Below, one piece after another: positions 6,210-62,614 of a stretch of DNA of 64,000 nt. How positions within the stretch are numbered: the first letter of the stretch is position 1; each line of letters starts with the position of its first letter. This DNA is from Escherichia coli (GTDB lineage: Bacteria > Pseudomonadota > Gammaproteobacteria > Enterobacterales > Enterobacteriaceae), in the NCBI RefSeq assembly GCF_013315695.1, contig NZ_CP054353.1; one strand, 5' to 3'. Below the pieces are notes generated by a model. That model was not told the DNA's origin. It saw nothing but the letters and a program-made list of their open reading frames with translations, and did no database searches. Position numbers and translations under genes: made by a program.

Positions 6210-6229
6210 TTAATAGAGGTAGGAATAAA

Positions 6230-8011: not shown

Positions 8012-8023
8012 GGGAGATAAATA

Positions 8024-11402: not shown

Positions 11403-11462
11403 TTAATCCCGATATTGAACATTGAGTTAAAAAACCAATTTGTATTTTACAAGGAGTTTGTT

Positions 11463-14181: not shown

Positions 14182-14202
14182 TTTGTTGAAAAAGGATTGA
14201 TA

Positions 14203-15345: not shown

Positions 15346-15373
15346 TGTATGATGGTGTTTTTGAGGTGCTCCA

Positions 15374-16071: not shown

Positions 16072-16086
16072 GTTGGAGTCATTACC

Positions 16087-34037: not shown

Positions 34038-34114
34038 GCGCCCTTAGCTCAGTTGGATAGAGCAACGACCTTCTAAGTCGTGGGCCGCAGGTTCGAATCC
34101 TGCAGGGCGCGCCA
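34038..34114 (+). tRNA. argU: tRNA-Arg (anticodon TCT in CTTCTAAG loop)
   Basis: GCGCCCTTAGCTCAGTTGGATAGAGC…GGTTCGAATCC…GCGCGCCA cloverleaf elements; integrase immediately downstream. Confidence 0.9.
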
Positions 34115-34129
34115 TTACAATTCAATCAG

Positions 34130-35293
34130 TTACGCCTTCTTTATATCCTCCATAATTCCACAGTGGGACATATTTGGGACATTATCACCAAAAATGTCGT
34201 CTATTTTCCTTGCATGCTCTGTCAAATGATTAGGCGCAAGGTGAGCATACCTACGAACCATTTCTATGGACTCCCATCCGCCCATTTCCTGAAGCACAGA
34301 TAATGGGACGCCTGACTGGATCAGCCAGCTTGCCCAGGTGTGTCTGAGGTCATGGAAACGGAAATCTTCAATTCCTGCACGACGACAAGCTGATAGCCAT
34401 GATGTCTTGCTGTCGATGCGCATCTTCCTGACCGCAGGCGTTGATGTTCCATCTGCTCGCTTAGTCGCCTTGGTATGTACAAACACCCATTTGTGATGCT
34501 TGCCTATTTGATCACGCAACACTTTACAGGCGGTATCGTTCAGCGCCACACCAATGGCGCGGTTTGATTTGCTCTCTTCTGGATTCACCCAGGCAACTCG
34601 TCGCTGCATGTCGATTTGTTGCCATTCCAGATTTATGATGTTCGACTTTCTCAGACCAGTTGCCAGCGCAAACTTGACGACAGATTTCAGTGGTTCGGGG
34701 CACTCATCAATAAGGCGTTTTGCTTCCTCCTTTTCCAGCCATCTGACTCGCTTGTTTCTGACCGCTGGTATCTTGATGACAGGCGCTTTTTCCAGCCACT
34801 TCCAGTCGCGTTCTGCAGCACGGAGAATGGCCTTTATCATGGCAAGATGCTTTGCCTTTGTCTGAGTTGATACTGGCTTTGGTTCATAAACAGGCGGTTC
34901 TTTACCTTTCCTGATGGCGGCCTGAACTTTCTGTTTCCATATTTCTTTCGTCTTTCTGTTATGCATTCTGCTTACAGCAGAGTAAATCTTTGCCTCCGAG
35001 ATATCTTTAAGCCTTATACCCTCAAAATGTTCAAGCCAGAACTCAATCCGGCTTTTATCTGAATCGAGAGATTTTTTATCAGCTTTTTCCTCAAGCCATC
35101 TTAGGCAGGCCTCTTCAAAAGTGACATCAGGTAAATCCCCTAGCTTTTCTACTCGCCAGAGTTCTGCTTTTCGCTTGTCGTGCAACTCCTGAGCTTGCCG
35201 CTTGTCCTTTGTGCCAAGAGATTCCTTAATTCGTTTCCCGCCCGGGAGCGAATACGAGGCATACCATATTTCATTTCTGCGGAAGAGTGACAT
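34130..35293 (-). CDS. intD: prophage tyrosine integrase (DLP12-type, argU-specific)
   Basis: 387 aa; C-terminal R..HxxR..Y catalytic region ([10 protein letters not shown]… ; …RRYAHL). Confidence 0.88.
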
Positions 35294-35523
35294 TTTCTTT
35301 CCTCTGTTATGCCATCACCCGCGCTCACCTGGACAGTATGCAGCGGAGACTGAAGCGCCGCAATGCAAGCTTGCCGTGTTGTGAGGTAAGGAGATTTTGG
35401 CTTGGTTGGATCTTTACGTGTTGCCTGTAGGCGGCCTGTTCGTATCCAGTTGGTGGCGGTTGGTCTGGATATCTTAAGAAACTGACAGGCCTCATCGAGT
35501 GTGAGGCTGTATGGCTCCATTAT
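35149..35523 (-). CDS. AlpA/Xis-like excisionase/DNA-binding protein (overlaps int 5' end; start uncertain)
   Basis: [34 protein letters not shown] typical of AlpA-family excisionases. Confidence 0.55.
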
Positions 35524-35825
35524 TTCACCTCTTGCTGTGTCATTGTTGAAAAATGGATACCAGCTCGTTGCTGCCAGACGATCCAACCGAGAGTCATATC
35601 CCATGCCATGTATTCGTTATCGCCGTTTTTTACTCTCCGACGATCTACTAAGTCACCGAAACGCTTTTCCATGAATAATTCATAGGCTTCGCGTTCATCT
35701 GGCTCTACTTCCAGAGATACGAGTGCGATTTCATAAGCACGGCGCTCAATATCGTCTCGAACCTCTAGGCTGCTGATTCGTTCTTTGATTTCTTTAATCA
35801 GTTCTTTATTGGTAAATGTGGTCAT
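35520..35825 (-). CDS. hypothetical prophage early-left protein (101 aa)
   Basis: Translationally coupled (overlapping start/stop) in the int-xis operon. Confidence 0.45.
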   Translation of the reverse strand: MTTFTNKELIKEIKERISSLEVRDDIERRAYEIALVSLEVEPDEREAYELFMEKRFGDLVDRRRVKNGDNEYMAWDMTLGWIVWQQRAGIHFSTMTQQEVK

Positions 35826-36187
35826 TATGCTCCAGCCTCCGGTGCTTTTGGCATTACTGCCCAGTGAGTGATATTGACGTTTTCAAGGTCCCCGACCTGA
35901 AATGTCCACTGCCATTCTCCGGTTTCTTTTTGTCCCCAGGTGTACCAGAGAGAACGCCAGCCAATCAGCCAGCCTTCTCCATTAGCATCAAATAACAGAA
36001 CACTTTCATTTGCTGGTGGCAGTTCAGCTGACACTGGTATTATTTTGTTTTCCAGTGCCGCACATTTAGCTTCAAGCGCGTCGAATTTACGTAACAGGTA
36101 CTCAGCATTTGTTTCATTCACTTTCAGATCTCGCGGTACACATTTCCCGCGAAGAAACCCTTCCATTTCGAAAACATTCATGCGCAT
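35825..36187 (-). CDS. DUF551-like prophage protein (120 aa)
   Basis: Trp-rich C-terminus ending …THWAVMPKAPE; coupled to neighbours. Confidence 0.45.
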   Translation of the reverse strand: MRMNVFEMEGFLRGKCVPRDLKVNETNAEYLLRKFDALEAKCAALENKIIPVSAELPPANESVLLFDANGEGWLIGWRSLWYTWGQKETGEWQWTFQVGDLENVNITHWAVMPKAPEAGA

Positions 36188-36741
36188 TTGCGTAACTCCG
36201 ATAAATCGTTAAAACGTTCCATAAACATCCCGTAGGCATGACCCGGTGCCAGTGGAATCACGTTGAACATCTCTGTTGCCGGGATGCCTTCCAGTACAGG
36301 CCAGAAAGAGCCATCATCAAGCCCGAGATCGCGGCGTTCGGTTGCCAGCATGATGAGATCGGCATATTTCACGGGTGTACTCATAACTGGGGGTAACCCG
36401 TATTTCTCACGGATTACGGCGTCTATTTTTTCTTCCATCCGTTTATAGTCAGGAAGAAGGCGTTTCAGTGGTGCGGGAATGTCCTGGCAATACGCTTCTG
36501 TTGCATCATGCATTAACGCTTCAAAAGCAAATTCCTGCGGCACCAGCTGGCTGCAAAGAACCGCATGTTGGGCGACGCTGTAGAAGTGCGAAAGATGACC
36601 GGCAAAGCGACAGATATTTGAAAGGGAAACCGCGATATCGTTAATATCGATGTCGTCTTTATTTATCTTGTCATAATAAAAATGCTTCCCGGAAAAAGTT
36701 TTAATAAATGACATTTTGTTCTCCACGTATATGCACTGCAC
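36178..36741 (-). CDS. HD-domain phosphohydrolase (YfbR-like 5'-nucleotidase family)
   Basis: H…HD metal-binding signature (…SVAQHAVL… ; …ALMHDATEAY…). Confidence 0.6.
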   Translation of the reverse strand: MQCIYVENKMSFIKTFSGKHFYYDKINKDDIDINDIAVSLSNICRFAGHLSHFYSVAQHAVLCSQLVPQEFAFEALMHDATEAYCQDIPAPLKRLLPDYKRMEEKIDAVIREKYGLPPVMSTPVKYADLIMLATERRDLGLDDGSFWPVLEGIPATEMFNVIPLAPGHAYGMFMERFNDLSELRKCA

Positions 36742-36839
36742 CGCGCTGAATTCTGGTAAAAGGAAGCCCTCACCATCCGGTGATTATTGAGTTAATTACG
36801 TTTCCATAAATGCCCCCGCAGGGGCATTTGCAGTAATGA

Positions 36840-37041
36840 AATCAGGCGGTGAAAGTACCAATAAAGGTTTCTACTTTGCTGTCTTTGAATTTCTCAACAA
36901 GCAGATCACGAAATTCGTTAGCCATTTCTTCCTGCACCGCTTCCAGCTGAATAATGCGCAGAACCAGTACAGGACGATCGCCAGTGATAATGCTGAGGCG
37001 TAATTTAAACGGACGTTCTTTCAGACCTTCAAACGGAACGC
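36840..37041 (-). pseudogene. 3' fragment of a prophage early gene, truncated by IS1
   Basis: Minus-strand frame open from the IS1 boundary to a stop at 36840 (…[39 protein letters not shown]); no start codon. Confidence 0.45.
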
Positions 37042-37096
37042 GGTGATGCTGCCAACTTACTGATTTAGTGTATGATGGTGTTTTTGAGGTGCTCCA

Positions 37097-37372
37097 GTGG
37101 CTTCTGTTTCTATCAGCTGTCCCTCCTGTTCAGCTACTGACGGGGTGGTGCGTAACGGCAAAAGCACCGCCGGACATCAGCGCTATCTCTGCTCTCACTG
37201 CCGTAAAACATGGCAACTGCAGTTCACTTACACCGCTTCTCAACCCGGTACGCACCAGAAAATCATTGATATGGCCATGAATGGCGTTGGATGCCGGGCA
37301 ACAGCCCGCATTATGGGCGTTGGCCTCAACACGATTTTACGTCACTTAAAAAACTCAGGCCGCAGTCGGTAA
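37097..37372 (+). CDS. insA: IS1 InsA
   Basis: Identical to 15374..15649. Confidence 0.9.
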
Positions 37373-37794
37373 CCTCGCGCATACAGCCGGGCAGTGACGT
37401 CATCGTCTGCGCGGAAATGGACGAACAGTGGGGCTATGTCGGGGCTAAATCGCGCCAGCGCTGGCTGTTTTACGCGTATGACAGGCTCCGGAAGACGGTT
37501 GTTGCGCACGTATTCGGTGAACGCACTATGGCGACGCTGGGGCGTCTTATGAGCCTGCTGTCACCCTTTGACGTGGTGATATGGATGACGGATGGCTGGC
37601 CGCTGTATGAATCCCGCCTGAAGGGAAAGCTGCACGTAATCAGCAAGCGATATACGCAGCGAATTGAGCGGCATAACCTGAATCTGAGGCAGCACCTGGC
37701 ACGGCTGGGACGGAAGTCGCTGTCGTTCTCAAAATCGGTGGAGCTGCATGACAAAGTCATCGGGCATTATCTGAACATAAAACACTATCAATAA
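37291..37794 (+). CDS. insB: IS1 InsB
   Basis: Identical to 15568..16071. Confidence 0.85.
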
Positions 37795-37850
37795 GTTGGA
37801 GTCATTACCTTCTAATTGATATGCAATTGTTTACTAAAAGTTATTAAAAA

Positions 37851-37868
37851 TGGGGCGTGGAAACGCCC
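37851..37868 (-). terminator. hairpin GGGGCGTGGAAACGCCCC with flanking A/T runs, likely the porin terminator
   Basis: Perfect 7-bp GC stem; on the minus strand it is followed by a T-run. Confidence 0.4.
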
Positions 37869-38007
37869 CCAAAATAAAGGGTAATATATAACAGAAGGTT
37901 TATATAGTAAGAAGCAAGGTAGTGCTTCTAAAGGAAGTGGCTTGAGGGCTCCACTTATATGTTGCGGAGGCAAAGCCTCCCGCAACATATCTTTTTCGTA
38001 AGTCAGA

Positions 38008-39090
38008 TTAGAACTGATAAACCAGACCTACAGCGACGATGTCGTCGGTATCAATACCAGCTGTTTTGGTAAACTTACTATCGTCAATTAAGTTGATTTT
38101 GTAATCAACAAAAGTGGACATGTTTTTATTAAAGTAGTAAGTAGCACCGACATCGACATACTTGACTAAGTCTCGGTCACCATGAACACCAAGGTCTTTA
38201 CCTTTTGACTGAAGGTAAGCAACAGATGGACGCAGACCGAAGTCAAACTGATATTGTGCTACTGCTTCAAAGTTTTGTGCTTTGTTTGCAATATGGTTAT
38301 TACCAAAAACGGTCATATTCTGAGTTTCAGAATATGTGGTAGCCAGATAGATATTGTTCGCATCATATTTCAGGCCTGCAGCCCATACTTCCGCATTTTT
38401 GCCGGAGGCATTGAATTTGCTCTTACCATAGGCGACCTGACCGTCAGTGCGATCTGATTTAGCATAGGTTGCACCCACGCCGAATCCTTCATACTCATAA
38501 GTAGTGGAGAAACCGAAACCATCACCATTGGCTTCAGTTACGTCAGTGCGGTCATTTTTACCCTGATACTGAGCAGCAAAGTTCAGGCCATCGACCAGAC
38601 CAAAGAAGTCGTTGTTACGATAAGTTGCAACACCAGTAGTGCGACCAGTCATGAACACATCTGTTTGGGTCCAGGTATCACCACCGAATTCTGGCAGGAC
38701 GTCAGTCCACGCACCGATGTCGTATGCTACACCGTAGTTACGGCCGTAATCGATTGAGCCGTAATCACCAAATTTCAGGCCTGCAAATGCAAGACGGGTT
38801 TTGTCTTTGGAAGAACCTTGAGATTCAGCACGGTTGCCTTTGAATTCATATTCCCACTGACCGAAACCAGTCAGTTGATCGTTGATTTGGGTTTCACCTT
38901 TGAAGCCAAGACGGGCATAAGTAGTATCACCATCATCTGCATCATTAGAGGAGAAGTAGTGCTTGGCATTAACTTTCCCGTATAGATCCAGCTTGTTACT
39001 GTCTTTATTATAAATTTCAGCTGCCTGAGCAGACATCGCCATCAGTACTGATGCAGCTACAGCAGAAATTGCCACTGTTAATTTTTTCAT
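38008..39090 (-). CDS. nmpC: prophage-encoded OmpC/OmpF-family porin, apparently intact
   Basis: 360 aa from [23 protein letters not shown] signal peptide; C-terminal …VAVGLVYQF beta-barrel signature. Confidence 0.85.
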
Positions 39091-39516
39091 TGTACGCCCT
39101 TTTTTTGAACTATTATTAAAAAATGATGTCACTGCGCGATAAATATTCATCTAATCAATGCGATTATTTCAAGATGTAAGTTTTAGTTTCTCATTTAATT
39201 TGTGAAGTAGATCTCTATTTTTATCTAAACCTTTTCTATCTAATCCTATTCATGGCTCTTGTTTGAACGAAAATAAATCTATTAGCTAATTTATATTAAT
39301 GGCACTTATTTATAAGCGATCTATAATTCTTTAGCTTAATTTAAACAAGCTAAAAATAACATCGGAAATTATTCATTGGTTATTTGTTGAAGTTTTCTTA
39401 TGTATTTGTGGTGGTGTTTTGAACACTCGGTGGCATTCTCACAAATATCATTTAGTAGTTTACGTACGTAAAAAATTGGTTATGCTGTTAAGAGTGGTTA
39501 CTTCGTCACACAGCTT

Positions 39517-39549
39517 AAACCCGCCGTCGAGCGGGTTTTTCCATTTTTT
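39517..39549 (+). terminator. rho-independent terminator upstream of the holin (tR'-like)
   Basis: AAACCCGC-CGTCGA-GCGGGTTTTTCCATTTTTT; stem-loop plus U tract. Confidence 0.5.
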
Positions 39550-39678
39550 GAGTCTCGATATTAGCTGATAACCCAATACCTGAGTTATTCACTGACTCCG
39601 AATCTGTTACGTTTCTGCCTTTATTGCGATACGTAGTATCCCCTTAATTTACACCCGCTTTGTCTGCGAGGTGGGGTT

Positions 39679-39894
39679 ATGAAATCCATGGATAAGTTAA
39701 CAACGGGTGTCGCCTATGGCACCTCAGCAGGTAGTGCCGGATACTGGTTTTTACAGCTGCTAGATAAAGTCACGCCCTCACAGTGGGCGGCAATTGGAGT
39801 GCTGGGTAGCCTGGTATTTGGCCTGCTGACGTACCTGACAAACCTTTATTTCAAGATTAAAGAAGATAAGCGCAAGGCTGCGAGAGGTGGATAA
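39679..39894 (+). CDS. essD: class II holin (phage-21 S21-like pinholin)
   Basis: 71 aa, two TM segments ([26 protein letters not shown]…), charged C-terminus. Confidence 0.85.
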
Positions 39895-40391
39895 TGCCTC
39901 CATCATTACGAAAAGCTGTTGCTGCTGCTATTGGTGGCGGGGCTATTGCTATAGCATCTGTGTTAATCACTGGCCCAAGTGGTAACGATGGTCTGGAAGG
40001 TGTGAGACATAATCCTTACAAAGACATAGTTGGTGTATGGACTGTATGTTACGGGCATACAGGAAAAGACATCATTCCCGGTAAAACGTATACCGAAGCA
40101 GAGTGCAAAGCCCTCCTGAATAAAGACCTTGCCACTGTCGCCAGACAAATTAACCCGTACATCAAAGTCGATATACCGGAAACAACGCGCGGCGCTCTTT
40201 ACTCGTTCGTCTACAACGTGGGTGCTGGCAATTTCAGAACATCGACGCTTCTTCGCAAAATCAACCAGGGCGATATCAAAGGCGCATGTGACCAGCTACG
40301 TCGCTGGACATACGCTGGCGGTAAGCAATGGAAAGGGCTGATGACTCGCCGTGAGATTGAGCGTGAAGTCTGTTTGTGGGGGCAGCAATGA
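39894..40391 (+). CDS. rrrD: SAR endolysin (T4 lysozyme-type muramidase with N-terminal signal-anchor-release domain)
   Basis: 165 aa; Gly/Ala-rich SAR segment [20 protein letters not shown] followed by lysozyme fold. Confidence 0.85.
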
Positions 40392-40825
40392 GCAGGTTAA
40401 CCGCGATTATCTCCGCTCTGGTTATCTGCATCATCGTCTGTCTGTCATGGGCTGTTAATCATTACCGTGATAACGCCATTACCTATAAAGAACAGCGCGA
40501 TAAAGCCACGTACATCATCGCTGACATGCAGAAGCGTCAACGTGACGTAGCAGAACTCGATGCCAGATATACAAAGGAGCTTGCTGATGCTAACGCGACT
40601 ATCGAAAGTCTCCGTGCTGATGTTTCTGCTGGGCGTAAGCGCCTGCAAGTCGCCGCCACCTGTGCAAAGTCAACGACCGGAGCCAGCGGCATGGGCGATG
40701 GAGAAAGCCCAGGACTTACAGCAGATGCTGAACTCAATTATTACCGTCTCCGAAGTGGAATCGACAAGATAACCGCGCAGGTTAACTACCTGCAGGAATA
40801 CATCAGGACGCAATGCCTGAAATAA
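40376..40825 (+). CDS. rzpD: Rz-like i-spanin
   Basis: 149 aa; N-terminal TM then coiled coil; overlaps endolysin end. Confidence 0.8.
40560..40772 (+). CDS. rzoD: Rz1-like o-spanin lipoprotein embedded in the +1 frame of Rz
   Basis: Lipobox LLGVSAC followed by Pro-rich segment; fully nested in rzpD; true start probably an internal Met. Confidence 0.7.
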
Positions 40826-40886
40826 TTTTTTTGCAAATCACAAAGTCAATTTAATGAGCCTCGCGATGCGGGGCTTTTTGCAATAA

Positions 40887-40911
40887 ATGCGTACCGCAAC
40901 GCATGTTTTTT
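40887..40911 (+). terminator. weak terminator-like hairpin after the spanin genes
   Basis: ATGCGT-ACCGCA-ACGCAT followed by GTTTTTT. Confidence 0.3.
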
Positions 40912-41026
40912 ACACCGAACCTGCCCCTTTGGAATGGGCCTTTGAGGATACCAGTTAGTGCTGGCGAGCCTCGGTGGGCTGGTTTCCTGTGCGGCAAAGG
41001 TTCATTTCAAAGAGTAGGTACACGCT

Positions 41027-41524
41027 ATGAAATCATTAACCCTCTTCAATCAACCAATTCGTATCGGTGAAGATGGCATGATCTGCCTCACTGATATGTG
41101 GAAAGCCAGTGGTAAAAGTGAATCTGAATCGCCTTACCACTACCTGCGAAACAAGCAGACCAAAGAGTTCTTAGCCGAGCTGGAGAAAAACCACGAATCT
41201 GTGGTTTTTACTGAGCGCGGTGTACACGGTGGAACATATGGCGGGAAGTTTGTTGCTTACGATTATGCGGCTTGGTTAAACCCCGGGTTCAAGTACGCGG
41301 CCTATAAAGTCCTCGATGACTACTTCACCGGAGAACTTCAGCATCGCAACAGCTTAAGTGCGCAGCTCAACATGAAATGTCATGAGTTTGACCAGAAGAA
41401 AGACATGGCGAGCTTCTGCGGACAAGGGCTGGCAGCATGGCGCTATACGAAGCCAGTGTTGGTCGCTGAGATTAACTCCCTGGCTAACCAGCTGCAGATT
41501 ACGATCCCCGGGCTTCCGGGATGA
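41027..41524 (+). CDS. KilA-N domain protein (165 aa)
   Basis: N-terminal KilA-N/APSES-like signature (…ICLTDMWKASGK… ; …YDYAAWLNPGFKYA…). Confidence 0.55.
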   Translation: MKSLTLFNQPIRIGEDGMICLTDMWKASGKSESESPYHYLRNKQTKEFLAELEKNHESVVFTERGVHGGTYGGKFVAYDYAAWLNPGFKYAAYKVLDDYFTGELQHRNSLSAQLNMKCHEFDQKKDMASFCGQGLAAWRYTKPVLVAEINSLANQLQITIPGLPG

Positions 41525-41778
41525 GTGATCGTGTTATTGAATGCGCCTCCAGAGCGGGGCGCGACTTCTCAGAGTTCATGAAAGGCGAGAAGGGCATGAT
41601 GGAAGCATTGGCCTCGGTGGATGAGTTTGGCGAGCAGCTGCGCCTCAACGGCTGTGTCAATCATCACTTTGTTAGCTACATGATGCGGAACTCGATCATG
41701 CAGGCATTCATGGACATGGCAAAAGCCGAGAGGAAAGAAGAGCGCCGGCGTAAGCGAGCGGAAGCAAAAGCGAAGTAG
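41521..41778 (+). CDS. hypothetical protein (85 aa), translationally coupled to the KilA-N gene
   Basis: ATGA start/stop overlap; Lys/Arg/Glu-rich C-terminal tail. Confidence 0.4.
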   Translation: MSDRVIECASRAGRDFSEFMKGEKGMMEALASVDEFGEQLRLNGCVNHHFVSYMMRNSIMQAFMDMAKAERKEERRRKRAEAKAK

Positions 41779-42263
41779 CCATTACAAAGCCTATCTACGG
41801 GTGGGCTTGATAATGGCTTATACCCTACACGGGATAACTTAACTGATATCCCTTTTAAAGGATAAAGGTATTCAAGCCTGACACATCATGCGCTGTATCG
41901 TCGCCGTGTTCCCGTATTAACAGAGACCGTAGCCCGACGGGGAACTCCTTCTGCGCGAGTGTGCGGGAATAATCAAAAACGATGCACACCGGGGTTACCG
42001 GGTACACATATTTCATCATGCCAGCGAGTCCGGTTCTGGCACGGAAGAAACCGGACGTTATGATTTAGTGCGGAAATATTTGTGTAGTGTTCTGAATGTT
42101 CTCAGTAAAGAGTAATGAATTATCAAAGGTATAGTAATACCTTTTGTTTTCGTGGATATTTGTAATCCATCTGAAAACCCCTGCTGTAGCAAGATTTTTC
42201 CTGTATTCGTAAAATGATAACTCTCCTGATTTGAATCCTTTTAAGGTGGCTTCTATAAGGCAT

Positions 42264-42476
42264 TTATTTTTTTGAAAATCTTACATTTACAACCTTACCC
42301 TGTCCTTTTATTAAAACCGTATTATCGTTTTCAAGAACAAGATGAATATTCTCTGTGGCTAAATAGTAAATGTAATGTGAGACATTGTGACGTTTTAGTT
42401 CAGAATAAAACCAGTGATAGTTTAAATTATTTCGCACTTTATCGAATATTTGTTTAAAAATGGCAACCTGAGCCAT
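42264..42476 (-). CDS. hypothetical small protein (about 70 aa) in an AT-rich island
   Basis: Likely start at the second Met (MAQVAIF…) preceded by GGAAGG; GC content well below surroundings. Confidence 0.4.
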
Positions 42477-42533
42477 TGTAGTACCTTCCATGTGATATGA
42501 GGGGGCGTAGTCTGCACGATTATCTAGATTGCT

Positions 42534-42767
42534 TCAATCTGGTCTAACCTGTTTTCTGAGCAATTCAGTAATGTCACTCTTTTCTTTGTTTGCTTCAGGC
42601 GAAACTCTTTTTTCTGAGCACAGTCTCCGGCGGCAGGCTTCAATGACCCAGGCTGAGAAATTCCCGGACCCTTTTTGAACAAGAGCGATGTTAATTTGTT
42701 CAATCATTTGGTTAGGAAAGCGGATGTTGCGGGTTGTTGTTCTGCGGGTTCTGTTCTTCGTTGACAT
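42534..42767 (-). CDS. ribbon-helix-helix-like small DNA-binding protein (77 aa)
   Basis: Basic N-tail then beta-strand/helix pattern …RNIRFPNQMIEQINIALVQKGSGNFSAWVIEACRRRL…. Confidence 0.45.
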   Translation of the reverse strand: MSTKNRTRRTTTRNIRFPNQMIEQINIALVQKGSGNFSAWVIEACRRRLCSEKRVSPEANKEKSDITELLRKQVRPD

Positions 42768-42966
42768 GAGGTTGCCCTGTATTCAGTGTCGCTGATTTGT
42801 ATTGTCTGAAGTTGTTTTTACGTTAAGTTGATGCAGATCAATTAATACGATACCTGCGTCATAATTGATTATTTGACGTGGTTTGATGGCGTAGATGCAC
42901 GTTGTGACATGTAGATGATAATTATTATCATTTTTCGGGTCCTTTCCGGCGATCCGACAGGTTACG

Positions 42967-42978
42967 GGGCGGCGACCT
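42967..42978. other. cosN cohesive-end site of the lambda-like packaging module
   Basis: …CGACAGGTTACG|GGGCGGCGACCT|CGCGGGTTTTCGCTATTTATGAAAATTTTCCGG… matches the remembered lambda end sequences; Nu1 starts 178 bp downstream. Confidence 0.8.
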
Positions 42979-43155
42979 CGCGGGTTTTCGCTATTTATGA
43001 AAATTTTCCGGTTTAAGGCGTTTCCGTTCTTCTTCGTCGTAACTTAATGTTTTTATTTAAAATACCCCCTGAAAAGAAAGGAAACGACAGGTGCTGAAAG
43101 CGAGCTTTTTGGCCTCTGTCGTTTCCTTTCTCTGTTTTTGTCCGTGGAATGAGCA

Positions 43156-43675
43156 ATGGAAGTCAACAAAAAGCAGCTGGCTGACATTTTCGGTGCGAGT
43201 ATCCGTACCATTCAGAACTGGCAGGAACAGGGAATGCCCGTTCTGCGAGGCGGTGGCAAGGGTAATGAGGTGCTTTATGACTCTGCCGCCGTCATAAAAT
43301 GGTATGCCGAAAGGGATGCTGAAATTGAGAACGAAAAGCTGCGCCGGGAGGTTGAAGAACTGCGGCAGGCCAGCGAGGCAGATCTCCAGCCAGGGACTAT
43401 TGAGTACGAACGCCACCGACTTACGCGTGCGCAGGCCGACGCACAGGAACTGAAGAATGCCAGAGACTCCGCTGAAGTGGTGGAAACCGCATTCTGTACT
43501 TTCGTGTTGTCGCGGATCGCAGGTGAAATTGCCAGTATTCTCGACGGGATCCCCCTGTCGGTGCAGCGGCGTTTTCCGGAACTGGAAAACCGACATGTTG
43601 ATTTCCTGAAACGGGATATCATCAAAGCCATGAACAAAGCAGCCGCGCTGGATGAACTGATACCGGGGTTGCTGA

Positions 43676-43701
<26 letters not shown>
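43156..43701 (+). CDS. nu1: terminase small subunit
   Basis: 181 aa, near-identical to remembered lambda Nu1 (MEVNKKQLADIFGASIRTIQNWQEQGMPVLRGGGKGNEVLYD…). Confidence 0.95.
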
Positions 43702-47382
<3,681 letters not shown>

Positions 47383-47402
<20 letters not shown>

Positions 47403-48702
47403 TCTCCCGCATATTACCAGTATGGCCTTTAATGAGCCGCTGATGCTTGAACCCGCCTATGCGCGGGTTTTCTTTTGTGCGCTTGCAGGCCAGCTTGGGA
47501 TCAGCCGCCTGACGGATGCGGTATCCGGCGACAGCCTGACTGCCGGAGAGGCACCCGCGGCGCTGGCGTTATCCGTTGATGATGACGGACCACGGCAGGC
47601 CCGCAGTTATCAGGTCATGAACGGCATCGCCGTGCTGCCGGTGTCCGGCACGCTGGTCAGCCGGACGCGGGCGCTGCAGCCGTATTCGGGGATGACCGGT
47701 TACAACGGCATTATCGCCCGTCTGCAACAGGCTGCCAGCGACCCGATGGTGGACGGCATTCTGCTCGATATGGATACGCCAGGCGGGATGGTGGCAGGGG
47801 CATTTGACTGCGCTGACATCATCGCCCGTGTGCGTGACATAAAGCCGGTATGGGCGCTGGCCAATGACATGAACTGCAGCGCAGGTCAGCTGCTTGCCAG
47901 TGCCGCCTCCCGGCGTCTGGTCACGCAGACCGCCCGGACAGGCTCCATCGGCGTCATGATGGCTCACAGTAATTACGGTGCTGCGCTGGAGAAACAGGGC
48001 GTGGAAATCACGCTGATTTACAGCGGCAGCCATAAGGTGGATGGCAACCCCTACAGCCATCTTCCGGATGACGTCCGGGAGACACTGCAGTCCCGGATGG
48101 ATGCAACCCGCCGGATGTTTGCGCAGAAGGTGTCGGCATATACCGGCCTGTCCGTGCAGGCTGTGCTGGATACCGAGGCTGCAGTGTACAGCGGTCAGGA
48201 GGCCATTGATGCCGGACTGGCTGATGAACTTGTTAACAGCACCGATGCGATCACCGTCATGCGTGATGCACTGGATGCACGTAAATCCCGTCTCTCAGGA
48301 GGGCGAATGACCAAAGAGACTCAATCAACAACTGTTTCAGCCACCGCTTCGCAGGCTGACGTTACTGACGTGGTGCAAGCGACGGAGGGCGAAAACGCCA
48401 GCGCGGCGCAGCCGGACGTGAACACGCAGATCACCGCAGCGGTTGCGGCAGAAAACAGCCGCATTATGGGGATCCTCAACTGTGAGGAGGCTCACGGACG
48501 CGAAGAACAGGCGCGCGTGCTGGCAGAAACCCCCGGAATGACCGTGGAAACGGCCCGCCGCATTCTGGCCGCAGCACCACAGAGTGCACAGGCGCGCAGT
48601 GACACTGCGCTGGATCGTCTGATGCAGGGTGCACCGGCACCACTGGCTGCAGGTAACCCGGCATCTGATGCCGTTAACGATTTGCTGAACACACCAGTGT
48701 AA
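47383..48702 (+). CDS. C: prohead protease/scaffold C (GTG start), with nested in-frame Nu3 scaffold in the 3' part
   Basis: 439 aa from (V)TAELRNLPHI; ClpP-like protease motifs; RBS GAGGAGGAG upstream. Confidence 0.9.
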
Positions 48703-48711
48703 GGGATGTTT

Positions 48712-49044
48712 ATGACGAGCAAAGAAACCTTTACCCATTACCAGCCGCTGGGCAACAGTGACCCGGCTCATACCGCAACCGCGCCCGGCGGATTGAGTGC
48801 GAAAGCGCCTGCAATGACTCCGCTGATGCTTGACACCGCCACCCGTAAGCTGGTTGCGTGGGATGGCACCACCGACGGTGCTGCCGTTGGCATTCTGGCT
48901 GTTGCAGCTGACCAGACCAGCACCACGCTGACGTTCTACAAGTCCGGCACGTTCCGTTATGAGGATGTGCTCTGGCCGGAGGCTGCCAGCGACGAGACGA
49001 AAAAACGGACCGCGTTTGCCGGAACGGCAATCAGCATCGTTTAA
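48712..49044 (+). CDS. D: head decoration protein D
   Basis: 110 aa ([27 protein letters not shown]…). Confidence 0.95.
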
Positions 49045-49099
49045 CTTTACCCTTCATCACTAAAGGCCGCCTGTGCGGCTTTTTTTACGGGATTTTTTT

Positions 49100-50125
49100 A
49101 TGTCGATGTACACAACCGCCCAGCTGCTGGCGGCAAATGAGCAGAAATTTAAGTTTGATCCGCTGTTTCTGCGTCTCTTTTTCCGTGAGAGCTATCCCTT
49201 CACCACGGAGAAAGTCTATCTCTCACAAATTCCGGGACTGGTAAACATGGCGCTGTACGTTTCGCCGATTGTTTCCGGTGAGGTTATCCGCTCCCGTGGC
49301 GGCTCCACCTCTGAATTTACACCGGGATATGTCAAGCCGAAGCATGAGGTGAATCCGCAGATGACCCTGCGTCGCCTGCCGGATGAAGATCCGCAGAATC
49401 TGGCGGACCCGGCTTACCGCCGCCGTCGCATCATCATGCAGAACATGCGTGACGAAGAGCTGGCCATTGCTCAGGTCGAAGAGATGCAGGCCGTTTCTGC
49501 CGTGCTTAAGGGCAAATACACCATGACCGGTGAAGCCTTCGATCCGGTTGAGGTGGATATGGGCCGCAGTGCGGCGAATAACATCACGCAGTCCGGCGGC
49601 ACGGAGTGGAGCAAGCGTGACAAGTCCACGTATGACCCGACCGACGATATCGAAGCCTACGCGCTGAACGCCAGCGGTGTGGTGAATATCATCGTGTTTG
49701 ATCCGAAAGGCTGGGCGCTGTTCCGTTCCTTCAAAGCCGTCAGGGAGAAGCTGGATACCCGTCGTGGCTCTCATTCCGAGCTGGAGACAGCGGTAAAAGA
49801 CCTGGGTAAAGCGGTGTCCTATAAGGGTATGTATGGCGATGTTGCCATCGTCGTGTATTCCGGACAGTACGTGGAAAACGGCGTCAAAAAGAACTTCCTG
49901 CCGGACAACACGATGGTGCTGGGGAACACTCAGGCACGCGGTCTGCGCACCTATGGTTGTATTCAGGATGCGGACGCACAGCGCGAAGGCATTAACGCCT
50001 CTGCCCGTTACCCGAAAAACTGGGTGACCACCGGCGATCCGGCACGTGAGTTCACCATGATTCAGTCAGCACCGCTGATGCTGCTGGCTGACCCTGATGA
50101 GTTCGTGTCCGTACAACTGGCGTAA
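49100..50125 (+). CDS. E: major capsid protein E
   Basis: 341 aa from MSMYTTAQLLAANEQKFKF. Confidence 0.95.
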   Translation: MSMYTTAQLLAANEQKFKFDPLFLRLFFRESYPFTTEKVYLSQIPGLVNMALYVSPIVSGEVIRSRGGSTSEFTPGYVKPKHEVNPQMTLRRLPDEDPQNLADPAYRRRRIIMQNMRDEELAIAQVEEMQAVSAVLKGKYTMTGEAFDPVEVDMGRSAANNITQSGGTEWSKRDKSTYDPTDDIEAYALNASGVVNIIVFDPKGWALFRSFKAVREKLDTRRGSHSELETAVKDLGKAVSYKGMYGDVAIVVYSGQYVENGVKKNFLPDNTMVLGNTQARGLRTYGCIQDADAQREGINASARYPKNWVTTGDPAREFTMIQSAPLMLLADPDEFVSVQLA

Positions 50126-50166
50126 TCATGGCCCTTCGGGGCCATTGTCTCTCTGTGGAGAAGTCC

Positions 50167-50562
50167 ATGACGAAAGATGAACTGATTGCCCGTCTCCGCT
50201 CGCTGGGTGAACAACTGAACCGTGATGTCAGCCTGACGGGGACGAAAGAAGAACTGGCGCTCCGTGTGGCAGAGCTGGAAGAAGAGCTTGATGACACGGG
50301 CGACACTGCCGGTCAGGATACCCCTCTCAGCCCGGAAAATGTGCTGACCGGACATGAAAATGAGGTTGTATCAGCGCAGCCGGATACCGTGACTGATACG
50401 GCTGATCTGGTCACGGTTGTGGCACTGGTGACGCTGCATACTGATGCACTTCACGCCACGCGGGATGAGGCTGTGGCATTTGTGCTGCCGGGAACGGCGT
50501 TCCGTGTCTCTGCCGGTGTGGCAGCTGAAATGACAGAGCGCGGCCTGGCCAGAATGCAATAA
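50167..50562 (+). CDS. FI: DNA-packaging protein FI
   Basis: About 131 aa from MTKDELIARLRSLGEQL. Confidence 0.9.
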   Translation: MTKDELIARLRSLGEQLNRDVSLTGTKEELALRVAELEEELDDTGDTAGQDTPLSPENVLTGHENEVVSAQPDTVTDTADLVTVVALVTLHTDALHATRDEAVAFVLPGTAFRVSAGVAAEMTERGLARMQ

Positions 50563-50573
50563 CGGGAGGCGCT

Positions 50574-50927
50574 GTGGCTGATTTCGATAACCTGTTCGAT
50601 GCTGCCATTGCCTGCGCCGATGAAACGATACGCGGGTACATGGGAACGTCAGCCACCATGACATCCGGTGAGCAGTCCGGTGCTGTGATACGTGGTGTTT
50701 TTGATGACCCTGAAAATATCAGCTATGCCGGACAGGGCGTGCGCGTTGAAGGCTCCAGCCCGTCCCTGTTTGTCCGGACTGATGATGTGCGGCAACTGCG
50801 GCGTGGAGACACGCTGACCATCGGTGAGGAAAACTTCTGGATAGATCGTGTTTCGCCGGATGATGGCGGAAGCTGTCATCTCTGGCTTGGGCGGGGCGTA
50901 CCGCCTGCCGTTAACCGTCGCCGCTGA
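50574..50927 (+). CDS. FII: head-tail connector FII (GTG start)
   Basis: 117 aa (M)ADFDNLFDAAIA…. Confidence 0.9.
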   Translation: MADFDNLFDAAIACADETIRGYMGTSATMTSGEQSGAVIRGVFDDPENISYAGQGVRVEGSSPSLFVRTDDVRQLRRGDTLTIGEENFWIDRVSPDDGGSCHLWLGRGVPPAVNRRR

Positions 50928-50938
50928 AAGGGGGATGT

Positions 50939-51517
50939 ATGGCCATAAAAGGTCTTGAGCAGGCCGTTGAAAACCTCAGCCGTATCAGCAAAACGGCGGT
51001 TCCCGGTGCCGCCGCAATGGCCATTAACCGCGTTGCGTCATCCGCGATATCGCAGTCGGCGTCACAGGTTGCCCGTGAGACAAAGGTACGCCGGAAACTG
51101 GTAAAGGAAAGGGCCAGGCTGAAAAGGGCCACGGTCAAAAATCCGCAGGCCAGAATCAAAGTTAACCGGGGGGATTTGCCCGTAATCAAGCTGGGTAATG
51201 CGCGGGTTGTCCTGTCCCGCCGCAGGCGTCGTAAAAAGGGGCAGCGTTCATCCCTGAAAGGTGGCGGCAGCGTGCTTGTGGTGGGTAACCGTCGTATTCC
51301 CGGCGCGTTTATTCAGCAACTGAAAAATGGCCGGTGGCATGTTATGCAGCGTGTGGCCGGGAAAAACCGTTACCCCATTGATGTGGTGAAAATCCCGATG
51401 GCGGTGCCGCTGACCACGGCGTTTAAACAGAATATTGAACGGATACGGCGTGAACGTCTTCCGAAAGAGCTGGGCTATGCGCTGCAGCATCAACTGAGAA
51501 TGGTAATAAAGCGATGA
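50939..51517 (+). CDS. Z: tail completion protein Z
   Basis: 192 aa. Confidence 0.9.
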   Translation: MAIKGLEQAVENLSRISKTAVPGAAAMAINRVASSAISQSASQVARETKVRRKLVKERARLKRATVKNPQARIKVNRGDLPVIKLGNARVVLSRRRRRKKGQRSSLKGGGSVLVVGNRRIPGAFIQQLKNGRWHVMQRVAGKNRYPIDVVKIPMAVPLTTAFKQNIERIRRERLPKELGYALQHQLRMVIKR

Positions 51518-51909
51518 AACATACTGAACTCCGTGCAGCCGTACTGGATGCACTGGAGAAGCATGACACCGGGGCGACGCTTTTTGATGGTCGCCCCGCT
51601 GTTTTTGATGAGGAAGATTTTCCGGCAATTGCCGTTTATCTCACCGGCGCTGAATACACGGGCGAAGAGCTGGACAGCGATACCTGGCAGGCGGAGCTGC
51701 ATATTGAAGTTTTCCTGCCTGCTCAGGTGCCGGATTCAGAGCTGGATTCGTGGATGGAGTCCCGGATTTATCCGGTGATGAGCGATATCCCGGCACTGTC
51801 AGATTTGATCACCAGTATGGTGGCCAGTGGCTATGACTACCGGCGCGACGATGATGCGGGCCTGTGGAGTTCAGCCGATCTGACTTATGTCATTACCTAT
51901 GAAATGTGA
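51514..51909 (+). CDS. U: tail terminator protein U
   Basis: 131 aa. Confidence 0.9.
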
Positions 51910-51916
51910 GGACGCT

Positions 51917-52657
51917 ATGCCTGTACCAAATCCTGTAATGCCGGTGAAAGGTGCCGGGACCACCCTGTGGGTTTATAAGGGGAGCGGTGACCCTTATGCG
52001 AACCCGCTTTCAGACGTTGACTGGTCGCGTCTGGCAAAAGTTAAAGACCTGACGCCCGGCGAACTGACCGCTGAGTCCTATGACGACAGTTATCTCGATG
52101 ATGAGGATGCGGACTGGACTGCGACCGGGCAGGGGCAGAAATCAGCCGGAGATACCAGCTTCACGCTGGCGTGGATGCCCGGAGAGCAGGGGCAGCAGGC
52201 GCTGCTGGCGTGGTTTAATGAAGGTGATACCCGTGCCTATAAAATCCGCTTCCTGAACGGCACGGTCGATGTGTTCCGTGGCTGGGTCAGCAGCATCGGT
52301 AAGGCGGTGACGGCAAAGGAAGTGATCACCCGTACGGTGAAGGTCACCAATGTGGGTCGTCCGTCAATGGCAGAAGAACACAGTACGGTGACGGCGGCAA
52401 CCGGTATGACCGTGACGCCAGCCAGCGCTTCCGTAGTGAAAGGGAAGAGCACCACGCTGACCGTGGCCTTCCAGCCGGAAGGCGCAACCGACAAGAGCTT
52501 CCGTGCGGTGTCAGCGGATAAAACAAAAGCTACCGTGTCGGTCAGTGGTATGACCATCACCGTGAATGGCGTTGCTGCAGGTAAGGTCAACATTCCGGTC
52601 GTATCCGGTAATGGTGAGTTTGCTGCGGTTGCAGAAATTACCGTCACCGCCAGTTAA
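51917..52657 (+). CDS. V: major tail tube protein V
   Basis: 246 aa from [22 protein letters not shown]; C-terminal Ig-like region. Confidence 0.95.
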
Positions 52658-52672
52658 TCCGGAGAGTCAGCG

Positions 52673-53095
52673 ATGTTCCTGAAAACCGAATCATTTGAAC
52701 ATAACGGTGTGACCGTCACGCTTTCTGAACTGTCAGCCCTGCAGCGCATTGAGCATCTCGCCCTGATGAAACGGCAGGCAGAACAGGCGGAGTCAGACAG
52801 CAACCGGAAGTTTACTGTGGAAGACGCCATCAGAACCGGCGCGTTTCTGGTGGCGATGTCCCTGTGGCATAACCATCCGCAGAAGACGCAGATGCCGTCC
52901 ATGAATGAAGCCGTTAAACAGATTGAGCAGGAAGTGCTTACCACCTGGCCCACGGAGGCAATTTCTCATGCTGAAAACGTGGTGTACCGGCTGTCTGGTA
53001 TGTATGAGTTTGTGGTGAATAATGCCCCTGAACAGACAGAGGACGCCGGGCCCGCAGAGCCTGTTTCTGCGGGAAAGTGTTCGACGGTGAGCTGA
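52673..53095 (+). CDS. G: tail assembly chaperone G
   Basis: 140 aa; ends just after slippery heptamer GGGAAAG (53071..53077). Confidence 0.9.
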   Translation: MFLKTESFEHNGVTVTLSELSALQRIEHLALMKRQAEQAESDSNRKFTVEDAIRTGAFLVAMSLWHNHPQKTQMPSMNEAVKQIEQEVLTTWPTEAISHAENVVYRLSGMYEFVVNNAPEQTEDAGPAEPVSAGKCSTVS

Positions 53096-53511
53096 GTTTT
53101 GCCCTGAAACTGGCGCGTGAGATGGGGCGACCCGACTGGCGTGCCATGCTTGCCGGGATGTCATCCACGGAGTATGCCGACTGGCACCGCTTTTACAGTA
53201 CCCATTATTTTCATGATGTTCTGCTGGATATGCACTTTTCCGGGCTGACGTACACCGTGCTCAGCCTGTTTTTCAGCGATCCGGATATGCATCCGCTGGA
53301 TTTCAGTCTGCTGAACCGGCGCGAGGCTGACGAAGAGCCTGAAGATGATGTGCTGATGCAGAAAGCGGCAGGGCTTGCCGGAGGTGTCCGCTTTGGCCCG
53401 GACGGGAATGAAGTTATCCCCGCTTCCCCGGATGTGGCGGACATGACGGAGGATGACGTAATGCTGATGACAGTATCAGAAGGGATCGCAGGAGGAGTCC
53501 GGTATGGCTGA
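53077..53511 (+). CDS. T: T segment of the G-T tail assembly chaperone, expressed by programmed -1 frameshift from G
   Basis: ORF in the -1 frame begins at the slippery site and runs to the start of H. Confidence 0.85.
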   Translation: MFDGELSFALKLAREMGRPDWRAMLAGMSSTEYADWHRFYSTHYFHDVLLDMHFSGLTYTVLSLFFSDPDMHPLDFSLLNRREADEEPEDDVLMQKAAGLAGGVRFGPDGNEVIPASPDVADMTEDDVMLMTVSEGIAGGVRYG

Positions 53512-56065: not shown

Positions 56066-56391
56066 AGACCTTCCGCTGGAAAGTGAAACCAGGTATGGAT
56101 GTGGCTTCGGTCCCTTCTGTAAGAAAGGTGCGCTTTGGTGATGGCTATTCTCAGCGAGCGCCTGCCGGGCTGAATGCCAACCTGAAAACGTACAGCGTGA
56201 CGCTTTCTGTCCCCCGTGAGGAGGCCACGGTACTGGAGTCGTTTCTGGAAGAGCACGGGGGCTGGAAATCCTTTCTGTGGACGCCGCCTTATGAGTGGCG
56301 GCAGATAAAGGTGACCTGCGCAAAATGGTCGTCGCGGGTCAGTATGCTGCGTGTTGAGTTCAGCGCAGAGTTTGAACAGGTGGTGAACTGA
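56062..56391 (+). CDS. M: tail tip protein M
   Basis: 109 aa. Confidence 0.9.
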   Translation: MKTFRWKVKPGMDVASVPSVRKVRFGDGYSQRAPAGLNANLKTYSVTLSVPREEATVLESFLEEHGGWKSFLWTPPYEWRQIKVTCAKWSSRVSMLRVEFSAEFEQVVN

Positions 56392-57089
56392 TGCAGGATA
56401 TCCGGCAGGAAACACTGAATGAATGCACCCGTGCGGAGCAGTCGGCCAGCGTGGTGCTCTGGGAAATCGACCTGACAGAGGTCGGTGGAGAACGTTATTT
56501 TTTCTGTAATGAGCAGAACGAAAAAGGTGAGCCGGTCACCTGGCAGGGGCGACAGTATCAGCCGTATCCCATTCAGGGGAGCGGTTTTGAACTGAATGGC
56601 AAAGGCACCAGTACGCGCCCCACGCTGACGGTTTCTAACCTGTACGGTATGGTCACCGGGATGGCGGAAGATATGCAGAGTCTGGTCGGCGGAACGGTGG
56701 TCCGGCGTAAGGTTTACGCCCGTTTTCTGGATGCGGTGAACTTCGTCAACGGAAACAGTTACGCCGATCCGGAGCAGGAGGTGATCAGCCGCTGGCGCAT
56801 TGAGCAGTGCAGCGAACTGAGCGCGGTGAGTGCCTCCTTTGTACTGTCCACGCCGACGGAAACGGATGGCGCTGTTTTTCCGGGACGTATCATGCTGGCC
56901 AACACCTGCACCTGGACCTATCGCGGTGACGAGTGCGGTTATAGCGGTCCGGCTGTCGCGGATGAATATGACCAGCCAACGTCCGATATCACGAAGGATA
57001 AATGCAGCAAATGCCTGAGCGGTTGTAAGTTCCGCAATAACGTCGGCAACTTTGGCGGCTTCCTTTCCATTAACAAACTTTCGCAGTAA
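56391..57089 (+). CDS. L: tail tip protein L
   Basis: 232 aa; C-terminal Cys cluster. Confidence 0.9.
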   Translation: MQDIRQETLNECTRAEQSASVVLWEIDLTEVGGERYFFCNEQNEKGEPVTWQGRQYQPYPIQGSGFELNGKGTSTRPTLTVSNLYGMVTGMAEDMQSLVGGTVVRRKVYARFLDAVNFVNGNSYADPEQEVISRWRIEQCSELSAVSASFVLSTPTETDGAVFPGRIMLANTCTWTYRGDECGYSGPAVADEYDQPTSDITKDKCSKCLSGCKFRNNVGNFGGFLSINKLSQ

Positions 57090-57094
57090 ATCCC

Positions 57095-57838
57095 ATGACA
57101 CAGACAGAATCAGCGATTCTGGCGCACGCCCGGCGATGTGCGCCAGCGGAGTCGTGCGGCTTCGTGGTAAGCACGCCGGAGGGGGAAAGATATTTCCCCT
57201 GCGTGAATATCTCCGGTGAGCCGGAGGCGTATTTCCGTATGTCGCCGGAAGACTGGCTGCAGGCAGAAATGCAGGGTGAGATTGTGGCGCTGGTCCACAG
57301 CCACCCCGGTGGCCTGCCCTGGCTGAGTGAGGCCGACCGGCGGCTGCAGGTGCAGAGTGATTTGCCGTGGTGGCTGGTCTGCCGGGGGACGATTCATAAG
57401 TTCCGCTGTGTGCCGCATCTCACCGGGCGGCGCTTTGAGCACGGTGTGACGGACTGTTACACACTGTTCCGGGATGCTTATCATCTGGCGGGGATTGAGA
57501 TGCCGGACTTTCATCGTGAGGATGACTGGTGGCGTAACGGCCAGAATCTCTATCTGGATAATCTGGAGGCGACGGGGCTGTATCAGGTGCCGTTGTCAGC
57601 GGCACAGCCGGGCGATGTGCTGCTGTGCTGTTTTGGTTCATCGGTGCCGAATCACGCCGCAATTTACTGCGGCGACGGCGAGCTGCTGCACCATATTCCT
57701 GAACAACTGAGCAAACGAGAGAGGTACACCGACAAATGGCAGCGACGCACACACTCCCTCTGGCGTCACCGGGCATGGCGCGCATCTGCCTTTACGGGGA
57801 TTTACAACGATTTGGTCGCCGCATCGACCTTCGTGTGA
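57095..57838 (+). CDS. K: tail tip assembly protein K (MPN/JAB plus NlpC/P60-like); 3' end as in ORF track, overlaps I
   Basis: HSHPGG JAMM-like motif; Cys/His NlpC/P60-like residues. Confidence 0.8.
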   Translation: MTQTESAILAHARRCAPAESCGFVVSTPEGERYFPCVNISGEPEAYFRMSPEDWLQAEMQGEIVALVHSHPGGLPWLSEADRRLQVQSDLPWWLVCRGTIHKFRCVPHLTGRRFEHGVTDCYTLFRDAYHLAGIEMPDFHREDDWWRNGQNLYLDNLEATGLYQVPLSAAQPGDVLLCCFGSSVPNHAAIYCGDGELLHHIPEQLSKRERYTDKWQRRTHSLWRHRAWRASAFTGIYNDLVAASTFV

Positions 57839-58407: not shown

Positions 58408-58467
58408 TGCAAAATGTTTTATGTGAAACCGCCTGCGGGCGGTTTTGTCATTTATGGAGCGTGAGGA

Positions 58468-61881: not shown

Positions 61882-61950
61882 AATTGTTATAACCCATATA
61901 AGGGCACCAGAAATGGTGCCTTTTTTATTGCAGAAAAGCGAGAGGTAATT

Positions 61951-62550: not shown

Positions 62551-62614
62551 TTAGCCAGGTAACACAGTGTTATGACAGCCCGCCGGTTCAGGTGGGCTTT
62601 TTTGTGGGGGGAAT

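Follow-up and report, generated by a model that had tools for sequence, protein, structure and literature searches.

A probable phage 21/DLP12-type pinholin and SAR endolysin cassette beside a lambda-type virion module in a Q-less argU prophage of Escherichia coli

Which kind of lysis system precedes the lambda-type structural genes in this E. coli prophage, and where does it give way to them? The window, which is the whole 64,000-nucleotide stretch of contig NZ_CP054353.1 (assembly GCF_013315695.1) that was analysed, had been described in an earlier note as carrying, at 39679-40825, a pinholin and SAR endolysin cassette of the phage 21 type joined to a lambda-type head and tail module. By analogy with the characterised systems, the cassette is very probably a late-gene lysis set of the phage 21 and DLP12 (essD-rrrD) kind, which resides in a lambdoid prophage at argU. 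A lysis set of this kind has already been well described, and the pinholin and SAR endolysin, the embedded Rz1 and lambdoid mosaicism are all textbook material. The combination is not new, as wild-type phage 434 carries pinholin and SAR endolysin genes together with lambda-type structural genes. Nor is the cassette itself new; it differs by a single base in the deposited PhiR49_1 (PV340568, host ECOR13), and RefSeq names its genes essD and rrrD. The present analysis adds to this picture a spanin allele of the Stx-phage kind, module boundaries spread over about 2 kb, and a prophage that has become Q-less through an IS1 deletion. In practice it yields a clean annotation of this part of the genome, and its broader importance is little.

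Lysis genes and their products

The list of open reading frames and the sequence itself revealed four intact forward-strand genes, S, R, Rz and Rz1, which filled 39679-40825; the span given in the earlier note was exact, as it starts at the S start codon and ends at the Rz stop codon. The S gene (39679-39894, + strand; 71 aa) was assigned as the gene of a class II holin, a pinholin, with a dual start (Pfam PF04971, E 2e-35), and R (39894-40391, + strand; 165 aa) as the gene of a SAR endolysin, a GH24 T4-type lysozyme (PF00959, E 3e-48). The remaining two genes were assigned to the i-spanin Rz (40388-40825, + strand; 145 aa; PF03245, E 4e-35) and the o-spanin lipoprotein Rz1 (40587-40772, + strand; 61 aa; PF06085, E 2e-20). 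Given these four E-values, the identification of the cassette lies far above chance. The NCBIfam search returned no model for S, Rz and Rz1, and only sub-threshold lysozyme matches for R. The S stop codon and the R start codon share one base (TAATG), and the start of Rz overlaps the stop of R (ATGA).

The S protein scored 121 bits in the family 'Bacteriophage P21 holin S' (PF04971), for which the cut-off is 26, and the match covered profile positions 1-63 of 64. Its amino acid identity was 98.6% to the DLP12/434B holin and 84.5% to that of phage 21. The N-terminus, MKSMDK, contains the dual start Met1-Lys2-Ser3-Met4, which is identical to that of phage 21. By the sequence, translation from Met1 yields the antiholin of 71 aa and translation from Met4 (39688) the holin of 68 aa, and an antiholin S71 and a holin S68 are annotated at these two starts in the records of phage 21 and 434B. 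RNA folding of the 81 nt around the dual start gave a stability no greater than that of shuffled sequence (z 0.03 here; -0.56 in phage 21); because the region folds no more stably than shuffled sequence, an sdi-like element at the dual start is unsupported here.

The description of S as a holin of 71 aa with two transmembrane segments held for the length and, by hydropathy, for TMD2 (residues 36-54; mean Kyte-Doolittle 1.72), which was strongly hydrophobic and contained G40, S44 and G48. TMD1 (residues 10-28) was weak at a mean of 0.68, below the plain threshold and similar to the 0.64 of the phage 21 S equivalent, and was assigned by homology to S21; 12 of the 21 residues at positions 8-28 were Gly, Ala, Ser or Thr. 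As the value of 0.68 fails the plain hydropathy threshold, membrane insertion of TMD1 rests on the experiments with S21 (PMC6116005). The weak hydropathy fits the published behaviour of a TMD1 that exits the membrane (PMC6116005).

The R protein had 95.8% amino acid identity to DLP12 RrrD/434B and 94.5% to R21. It aligned over its full length with PDB entries 4ZPU (DLP12 RrrD, 1e-106) and 3HDE (phage 21 lysozyme, 9e-106), and residues 1-37 were identical in both alignments. An N-terminal Gly/Ala-rich signal-anchor-release segment had been claimed for this endolysin, and the hydropathy check for its absence was run; the segment was present, with a mean Kyte-Doolittle value of 2.11 at residues 8-26 and a sequence identical to that of R21, and the claim stands unrefuted. 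The segment (approximately residues 8-27) contained 7 Ala, 4 Gly, 1 Ser and 1 Thr, that is 13 of 20 residues, and was preceded by the basic residues R6 and K7. A catalytic triad E35-X8-D44-X5-T50 could be read from the sequence; PMC9239132 gives E-X8-D-X5-T as the definition of this lysozyme motif. Residues 1-51 of R contained no Cys. In these predicted features R resembles the R21 type and not the P1 Lyz type, the distinction between R21-type refolding and disulfide isomerisation in P1 Lyz being that of works cited in PMC6116005. The definitive test of a SAR endolysin is its release from the inner membrane by the pinholin or by depolarisation (PMC9239132).

Spanin allele and module boundaries up to cos

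Full nesting of Rz1 within Rz, which had also been proposed, was borne out; the whole of Rz1 (40587-40772) is encoded in the +1 frame within Rz (40388-40825) and occupies 0.45-0.88 of the Rz length. This position is close to the usual span of an embedded Rz1, which starts at 0.4-0.5 and ends at 0.9-1 of Rz (PMC6139136). The motif AAGGAG was found 7 nt upstream of the Rz1 ATG. The Rz protein has an N-terminal TMD at residues 5-23 (mean Kyte-Doolittle 2.63), and its periplasmic Cys92 and Cys143 align with C99 and C152 of lambda Rz. The Rz1 lipobox, V-S-A-C with Cys20 and a Lys at +2, would fit an outer-membrane lipoprotein, and there was no further Cys in Rz1. According to the rule for the lambda spanins, either Rz C152 or Rz1 C29 must remain for an intermolecular disulfide (PMC6139136). 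As mature Rz1 has no such Cys, spanin dimerisation would therefore depend on Rz Cys143.

Comparison with the spanins of related phages revealed 56-58% identity of Rz to the Rz proteins of lambda, phage 21 and phage 434 and 55% to that of DLP12, while Rz1 was only 33% identical to the pair common to lambda, phage 21, phage 434 and DLP12. Against Stx2a_F349 (Pankowvirus pv1717, AP012530), Rz was 94.5% identical and mature Rz1 100% identical. Judged by these identities, the spanin pair is the allele of Stx phage 1717, not that of lambda and phage 21. At the DNA level, the resemblance to phage 21, phage 434 and lambda ends within Rz at approximately 40636, just inside Rz1. A fresh Rz chimera with its joint at 40636 was considered and rejected, since the 94.5% identity to the Rz of Stx2a_F349 extends from end to end; the shared stretch is simply the conserved 5' part of Rz, common to all alleles.

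Downstream of Rz, an accessory module was found on the forward strand. It consisted of a KilA-N/ORF11CD3 protein gene (41027-41524, + strand; Pfam KilA-N 1e-15, ORF11CD3 2e-13), 97% identical to its Stx2a_F349 counterpart, and an 85-aa ORF (41521-41778, + strand) with 100% identity to a Stx2a_F349 protein. No homology to lambda, phage 21 or phage 434 was found within this module (41027-41778). It is followed by a homologue of the lambda ybcV region on the complementary strand (41889-42550, 82.6% identity). In the RefSeq annotation of a near-identical genome, that of E. coli strain MSB1_4I, this part contains a frameshifted ybcV-like DUF1398 gene (approximately 42066-42477), after which comes a YlcI/YnfO gene (approximately 42535-42768); relative to PhiR49_1, in which ybcV is unframeshifted, the ybcV-like gene of the window has an indel at 42273.

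The cosN site, GGGCGGCGACCT, was located at 42967-42978 (+ strand) as an exact match. It marks the left terminus of a virion chromosome of the lambda type, and its position in the window corresponds to the start of the linear lambda-like phage records. The lambda-type packaging, head and tail module, which takes in cos, Nu1 and the following genes in the lambda order up to and including most of J, extends over 42605-61437 (+ strand), with a DNA identity to lambda of 98.1% over 18,836 bp, from 362 bp left of cosN to inside J. The products of Nu1, A, B and E were 99.4, 99.5, 99.1 and 98.8% identical to those of lambda and 51.6-64.3% identical to those of phage 21, and the tail genes are common to lambda and phage 21 (95.8% nucleotide identity to phage 21). 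The lambda-like character proposed for the downstream structural genes was thereby upheld over 18.8 kb, with head proteins at about 99% identity. The proposal of a mosaic of phage 21-type lysis genes and a lambda-type head was likewise supported, but the word 'joint' applies only loosely, as approximately 2.1 kb separates Rz from cos. The best-matching partner switches at approximately 39678, 40636, 41889 and 42605. On this pattern of similarity there are at least three module boundaries between Rz and cos, and the arrangement is ordinary lambdoid mosaicism, not a single junction.

Prophage site, IS1 deletion and known relatives

The left end of the prophage is the tRNA-Arg gene argU (34038-34111, + strand; Rfam tRNA, 72 bits), followed by an intD-type integrase gene (34130-35293, - strand), in the RefSeq order fimZ, tRNA-Arg, intD. 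The prophage is integrated at argU, which is the DLP12 site. Between 33500 and 43500, Rfam hits at E≤0.1 were limited to this tRNA-Arg and one spurious antisense match.

An IS1 element was found at 37042-37809 (+ strand), with its ends read directly and an IS1A transposase annotation. The window from 34116 to 37041 corresponds to positions 1-2926 of PhiR49_1, and the window from 37810 onwards to PhiR49_1 from 12257; PhiR49_1 positions 2927-12256 (9.3 kb) are absent here, and IS1 stands in their place. The genes lost with this segment are part of yfdQ, yfdP, cI, cro, O, a methyltransferase gene, rusA and Q, of which the last 10 nt remain (37810-37819). Between the deleted Q and S lies an OmpC/NmpC/Lc-type porin gene (38008-39150, - strand; Pfam Porin_1 2e-151), annotated as ompC/OmpD, for which RefSeq places the start at 39090. 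Owing to the loss of the early region, the prophage cannot repress, replicate or antiterminate on its own. As judged from its gene content the prophage is defective, while the lysis cassette and a complete lambda-type virion module are intact. The loss of Q is relevant to the strain's capacity for lysis and particle release upon induction. The deletion looks recent because its flanks are 99.97% identical to PhiR49_1. The stretch of DNA was 99.86% identical to strain MSB1_4I, and the Q-less arrangement over the whole 12-kb query occurred in only 1 of 5,426 complete E. coli genomes.

Phage PhiR49_1 shares with this prophage the integrase, the porin, the KilA-N module and the structural genes of the lambda type, with 97.8% identity over 26 kb, 99.9% over the 1.6 kb around the cassette and 100% over the S-R DNA. 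The sole difference within the cassette is the last codon of Rz, which is AAT (Asn) in PhiR49_1 and AAA (Lys) here, at 40822, and which sets the cassette apart from every database copy; the Rz of Stx2a_F349 also ends in Lys. In place of IS1, PhiR49_1 retains the early region of 9.3 kb with yfdQ/P, cI, cro, O, rusA and Q. A literature search for PhiR49 found no paper.

Phage 21 (OL657228; PDB 3HDE, 3HDF) shares the lengths of S and R, the dual start, the SAR segment and the start/stop overlaps, with 89.4% identity of the S-R DNA, while the DLP12- and 434-like cassettes are nearer (94-95%). It differs in its spanin allele (Rz 56.5%, Rz1 33%), in its head proteins (52-64% identical) and in the DNA upstream of the lysis genes, where it carries pR' and two tRNAs, whereas a porin gene is found here. 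DLP12 (essD-rrrD-rzpD/rzoD of K-12), which was compared via the DLP12-derived segment of 434B, occupies the same argU/intD site and has an nmpC-type porin gene beside S, but its spanin pair is of the lambda type (Rz 55%, Rz1 33% identical to the pair here). The DNA upstream of S was 87.9% identical to the DLP12-derived region of 434B. Unlike the prophage described here, the DLP12 of K-12 is not known to have a full lambda-type virion module.

Phage 434 (OL657226) carries a pinholin, a SAR endolysin (94.5% identical) and spanins upstream of lambda-type structural genes (97.3%). Its holin, with a single 68-aa start annotated, is 78.9% identical to S; its spanin allele is of the lambda type, and bor, not the KilA-N module, lies between Rz and cos. 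Stx2a_F349 has the same spanin allele and the same module of KilA-N gene and 85-aa ORF (97% and 100%), but its S is only 80.3% identical, and taxonomically the rest of its genome belongs to another type of phage. In 75 phage records, S-R was covered to at least 80%. Among the 5,426 complete E. coli genomes, 5,053 had a match to the cassette, which in 914 of them extended over at least 80% of the cassette; in MSB1_4I, RefSeq names the products essD, rrrD and 'lysis protein'.

Expected lysis mechanism, expression and alternative explanations

The mechanism by which the cassette would act is carried over by homology from phage 21, DLP12 and lambda, with the pinholin and SAR endolysin steps as described in PMC6116005 and PMC6139136. 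By analogy with phage 21, S68 would be the pinholin, and S71, with its extra N-terminal Lys, the antiholin that delays it. The S68 form would accumulate in the inner membrane, where TMD1 would leave the bilayer and TMD2 would oligomerise into pinholes of approximately 2 nm, which would collapse the proton-motive force. The R protein would be exported by Sec, and its Gly/Ala-rich SAR segment would hold it in the membrane in an inactive state until depolarisation sets it free to refold and degrade the murein. As the SAR segment has no Cys, this refolding would take place without a disulfide switch. The Rz/Rz1 spanin complex would then fuse the inner and outer membranes.

The DLP12 cassette is under the control of Q, RpoE and Hha (PMC7918800). 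Here Q is deleted, which leaves the cassette without an antiterminator of its own to turn it on; if it is expressed at all, this would be through a host promoter or through Q provided in trans. A promoter scan of 37700-43200 gave 8 sites, against 10.4 expected by chance, and did not locate pR'. A terminator scan of the same range revealed a terminator-like hairpin at 39517-39538, upstream of S.

A canonical lambda-type system, in which a large-hole holin releases a soluble cytoplasmic endolysin, would share with this locus the order S-R-Rz/Rz1 and the place upstream of cos, and the first 250 nt or so of Rz (40388-40636) have 77% DNA identity to lambda. The S and R proteins themselves, however, had identities of only 21.6% and 19.8% to their lambda counterparts, compared with 84.5% and 94.5% for phage 21, and since values of about 20% came from a forced global alignment, the lambda proteins are regarded as unrelated. 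Moreover, S matches the P21 holin family and no lambda holin family, and the hydrophobic N-terminal segment of R, at 2.11, stands against a maximum of 0.04 in lambda R. Lambda R is a transglycosylase, whereas the R found here belongs to the T4 lysozyme family. A lambda-type system can practically be dismissed, and the earlier reading of pinholin and SAR endolysin in place of lambda S/R is retained. Nor is it likely that the cassette has lost its function and is decaying as the remnant of a dead prophage. The prophage is defective, with IS1 in place of 9.3 kb that held Q, cI and the replication genes, and the neighbouring ybcV-like gene is frameshifted, both of which would suit a remnant. Yet all four lysis ORFs are full-length, the DNA of S and R matches that of PhiR49_1 base for base, and the cassette has a single altered codon, the last one of Rz, which gives the Lys that is also found in the Stx-phage allele. 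With every ORF intact, and with flanks at 99.97% identity pointing to a recent deletion after which decay has not begun, this explanation is very improbable.

A different possibility, compatible with the functions assigned above to the phage 21/DLP12-type proteins, is that the host keeps the cassette and uses it at a low level, through a host promoter and not through Q, for wall turnover, outer-membrane vesicles or biofilm, as has been reported for the essD-rrrD-rzpD module of DLP12 in K-12. The argU site and the gene family are those of DLP12, the 87.9% identity upstream of S extends the likeness to the DLP12-derived region of 434B, and roles of the DLP12 cassette together with its RpoE and Hha control have been summarised (PMC7918800). 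Against this, the Q-less arrangement is rare, with a single genome among 5,426 over the 12-kb query, and the apparently recent date of the deletion, deduced from its nearly identical flanks, disfavours long-term selection for such a use. A role for the host is accordingly considered unlikely, though less so than either of the explanations above.

Another lambdoid prophage in the same cell, if its Q were compatible, could activate the late genes in trans, in a helper-dependent, satellite-like lifestyle, although we regard this as a decidedly long shot. If it were true, the remnant would add lysis proteins and lambda-type particles when the other phage is induced, and its own cos-bearing DNA could be mobilised during that induction. 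Every base downstream of the last 10 nt of Q, including cos, was retained in the window, and three places in the MSB1_4I genome matched the cassette.

Region upstream of the lysis genes

Comparison with PhiR49_1 (PV340568), the closest phage, which retains the early region, revealed that 9.3 kb of the prophage comprising cI, cro, O, rusA and Q had been swapped for an IS1 element. The IS1 together with the Q remnant occupied 37042–37819, and only the final 10 nt of this late antiterminator gene were left. An intact, prophage-borne porin gene of the OmpC/NmpC/Lc type (38008–39150, minus strand; Pfam Porin_1, 2e-151) was located between the former Q site and the holin gene S, antisense to the late transcript, and hairpins were present downstream of it at approximately 37950–37990 and 37852–37869. 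In phage 434B, the DLP12-derived copy of the porin gene is broken by IS5, in contrast to the intact copy in the window.

A terminator-like hairpin on the plus strand (39517–39538; AAACCCGC...GCGGGTTT, then a stretch of T residues) was found 140 nt upstream of S, where it stands in the route of any late transcript. Polymerase modified by Q would be expected to read through this hairpin, while without Q it may stop the transcripts arriving from upstream.

Rz terminus and downstream genes

At position 40822, the window carried one base unlike all database copies of the lysis cassette, including those of PhiR49_1 and the closest genome, E. coli MSB1_4I. The final Rz codon was AAA (Lys) in the window and AAT (Asn) in the database copies; the C-terminal residue of Rz in the Stx2-converting phage Stx2a_F349 (Pankowvirus pv1717) is likewise Lys. 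Downstream, a ybcV-like DUF1398 gene (approximately 42066–42477, minus strand) was frameshifted, with an indel relative to PhiR49_1 at 42273; the gene is frameshifted in MSB1_4I as well, whereas that of PhiR49_1 is intact.

The alignment with MSB1_4I was interrupted at 50920–50972, between the FII and Z genes, where the offset shifted by 44 bp; the FII–Z spacer was shorter in the window than in both MSB1_4I and PhiR49_1. Past 61437, at the end of J, similarity to lambda fell, and it returned only patchily within 61437–64000, with one lambda-like patch at 62423–62964 (86.9%). In the tail-fibre gene, two 249-bp stretches (63146–63394 and 63335–63583) cross-matched the PhiR49_1 counterparts of each other at approximately 84%, which points to a repeat within the gene.

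Second IS1 copy in the allantoin region

A second IS1 copy was present at 15318–16087 (flanks 14197–15345 and 16146–17618), and its sequence was identical to that of the prophage IS1. It was flanked by a 3'-truncated glxK, with the glycerate 3-kinase profile covered over 1–372 of 381, and a 5'-truncated fdrA, with its own profile covered over 67–555 of 555. At this site MSB1_4I has allC and allD, both of which the window lacks, and this sequence comparison points to a further IS1-associated deletion, here in the allantoin region.
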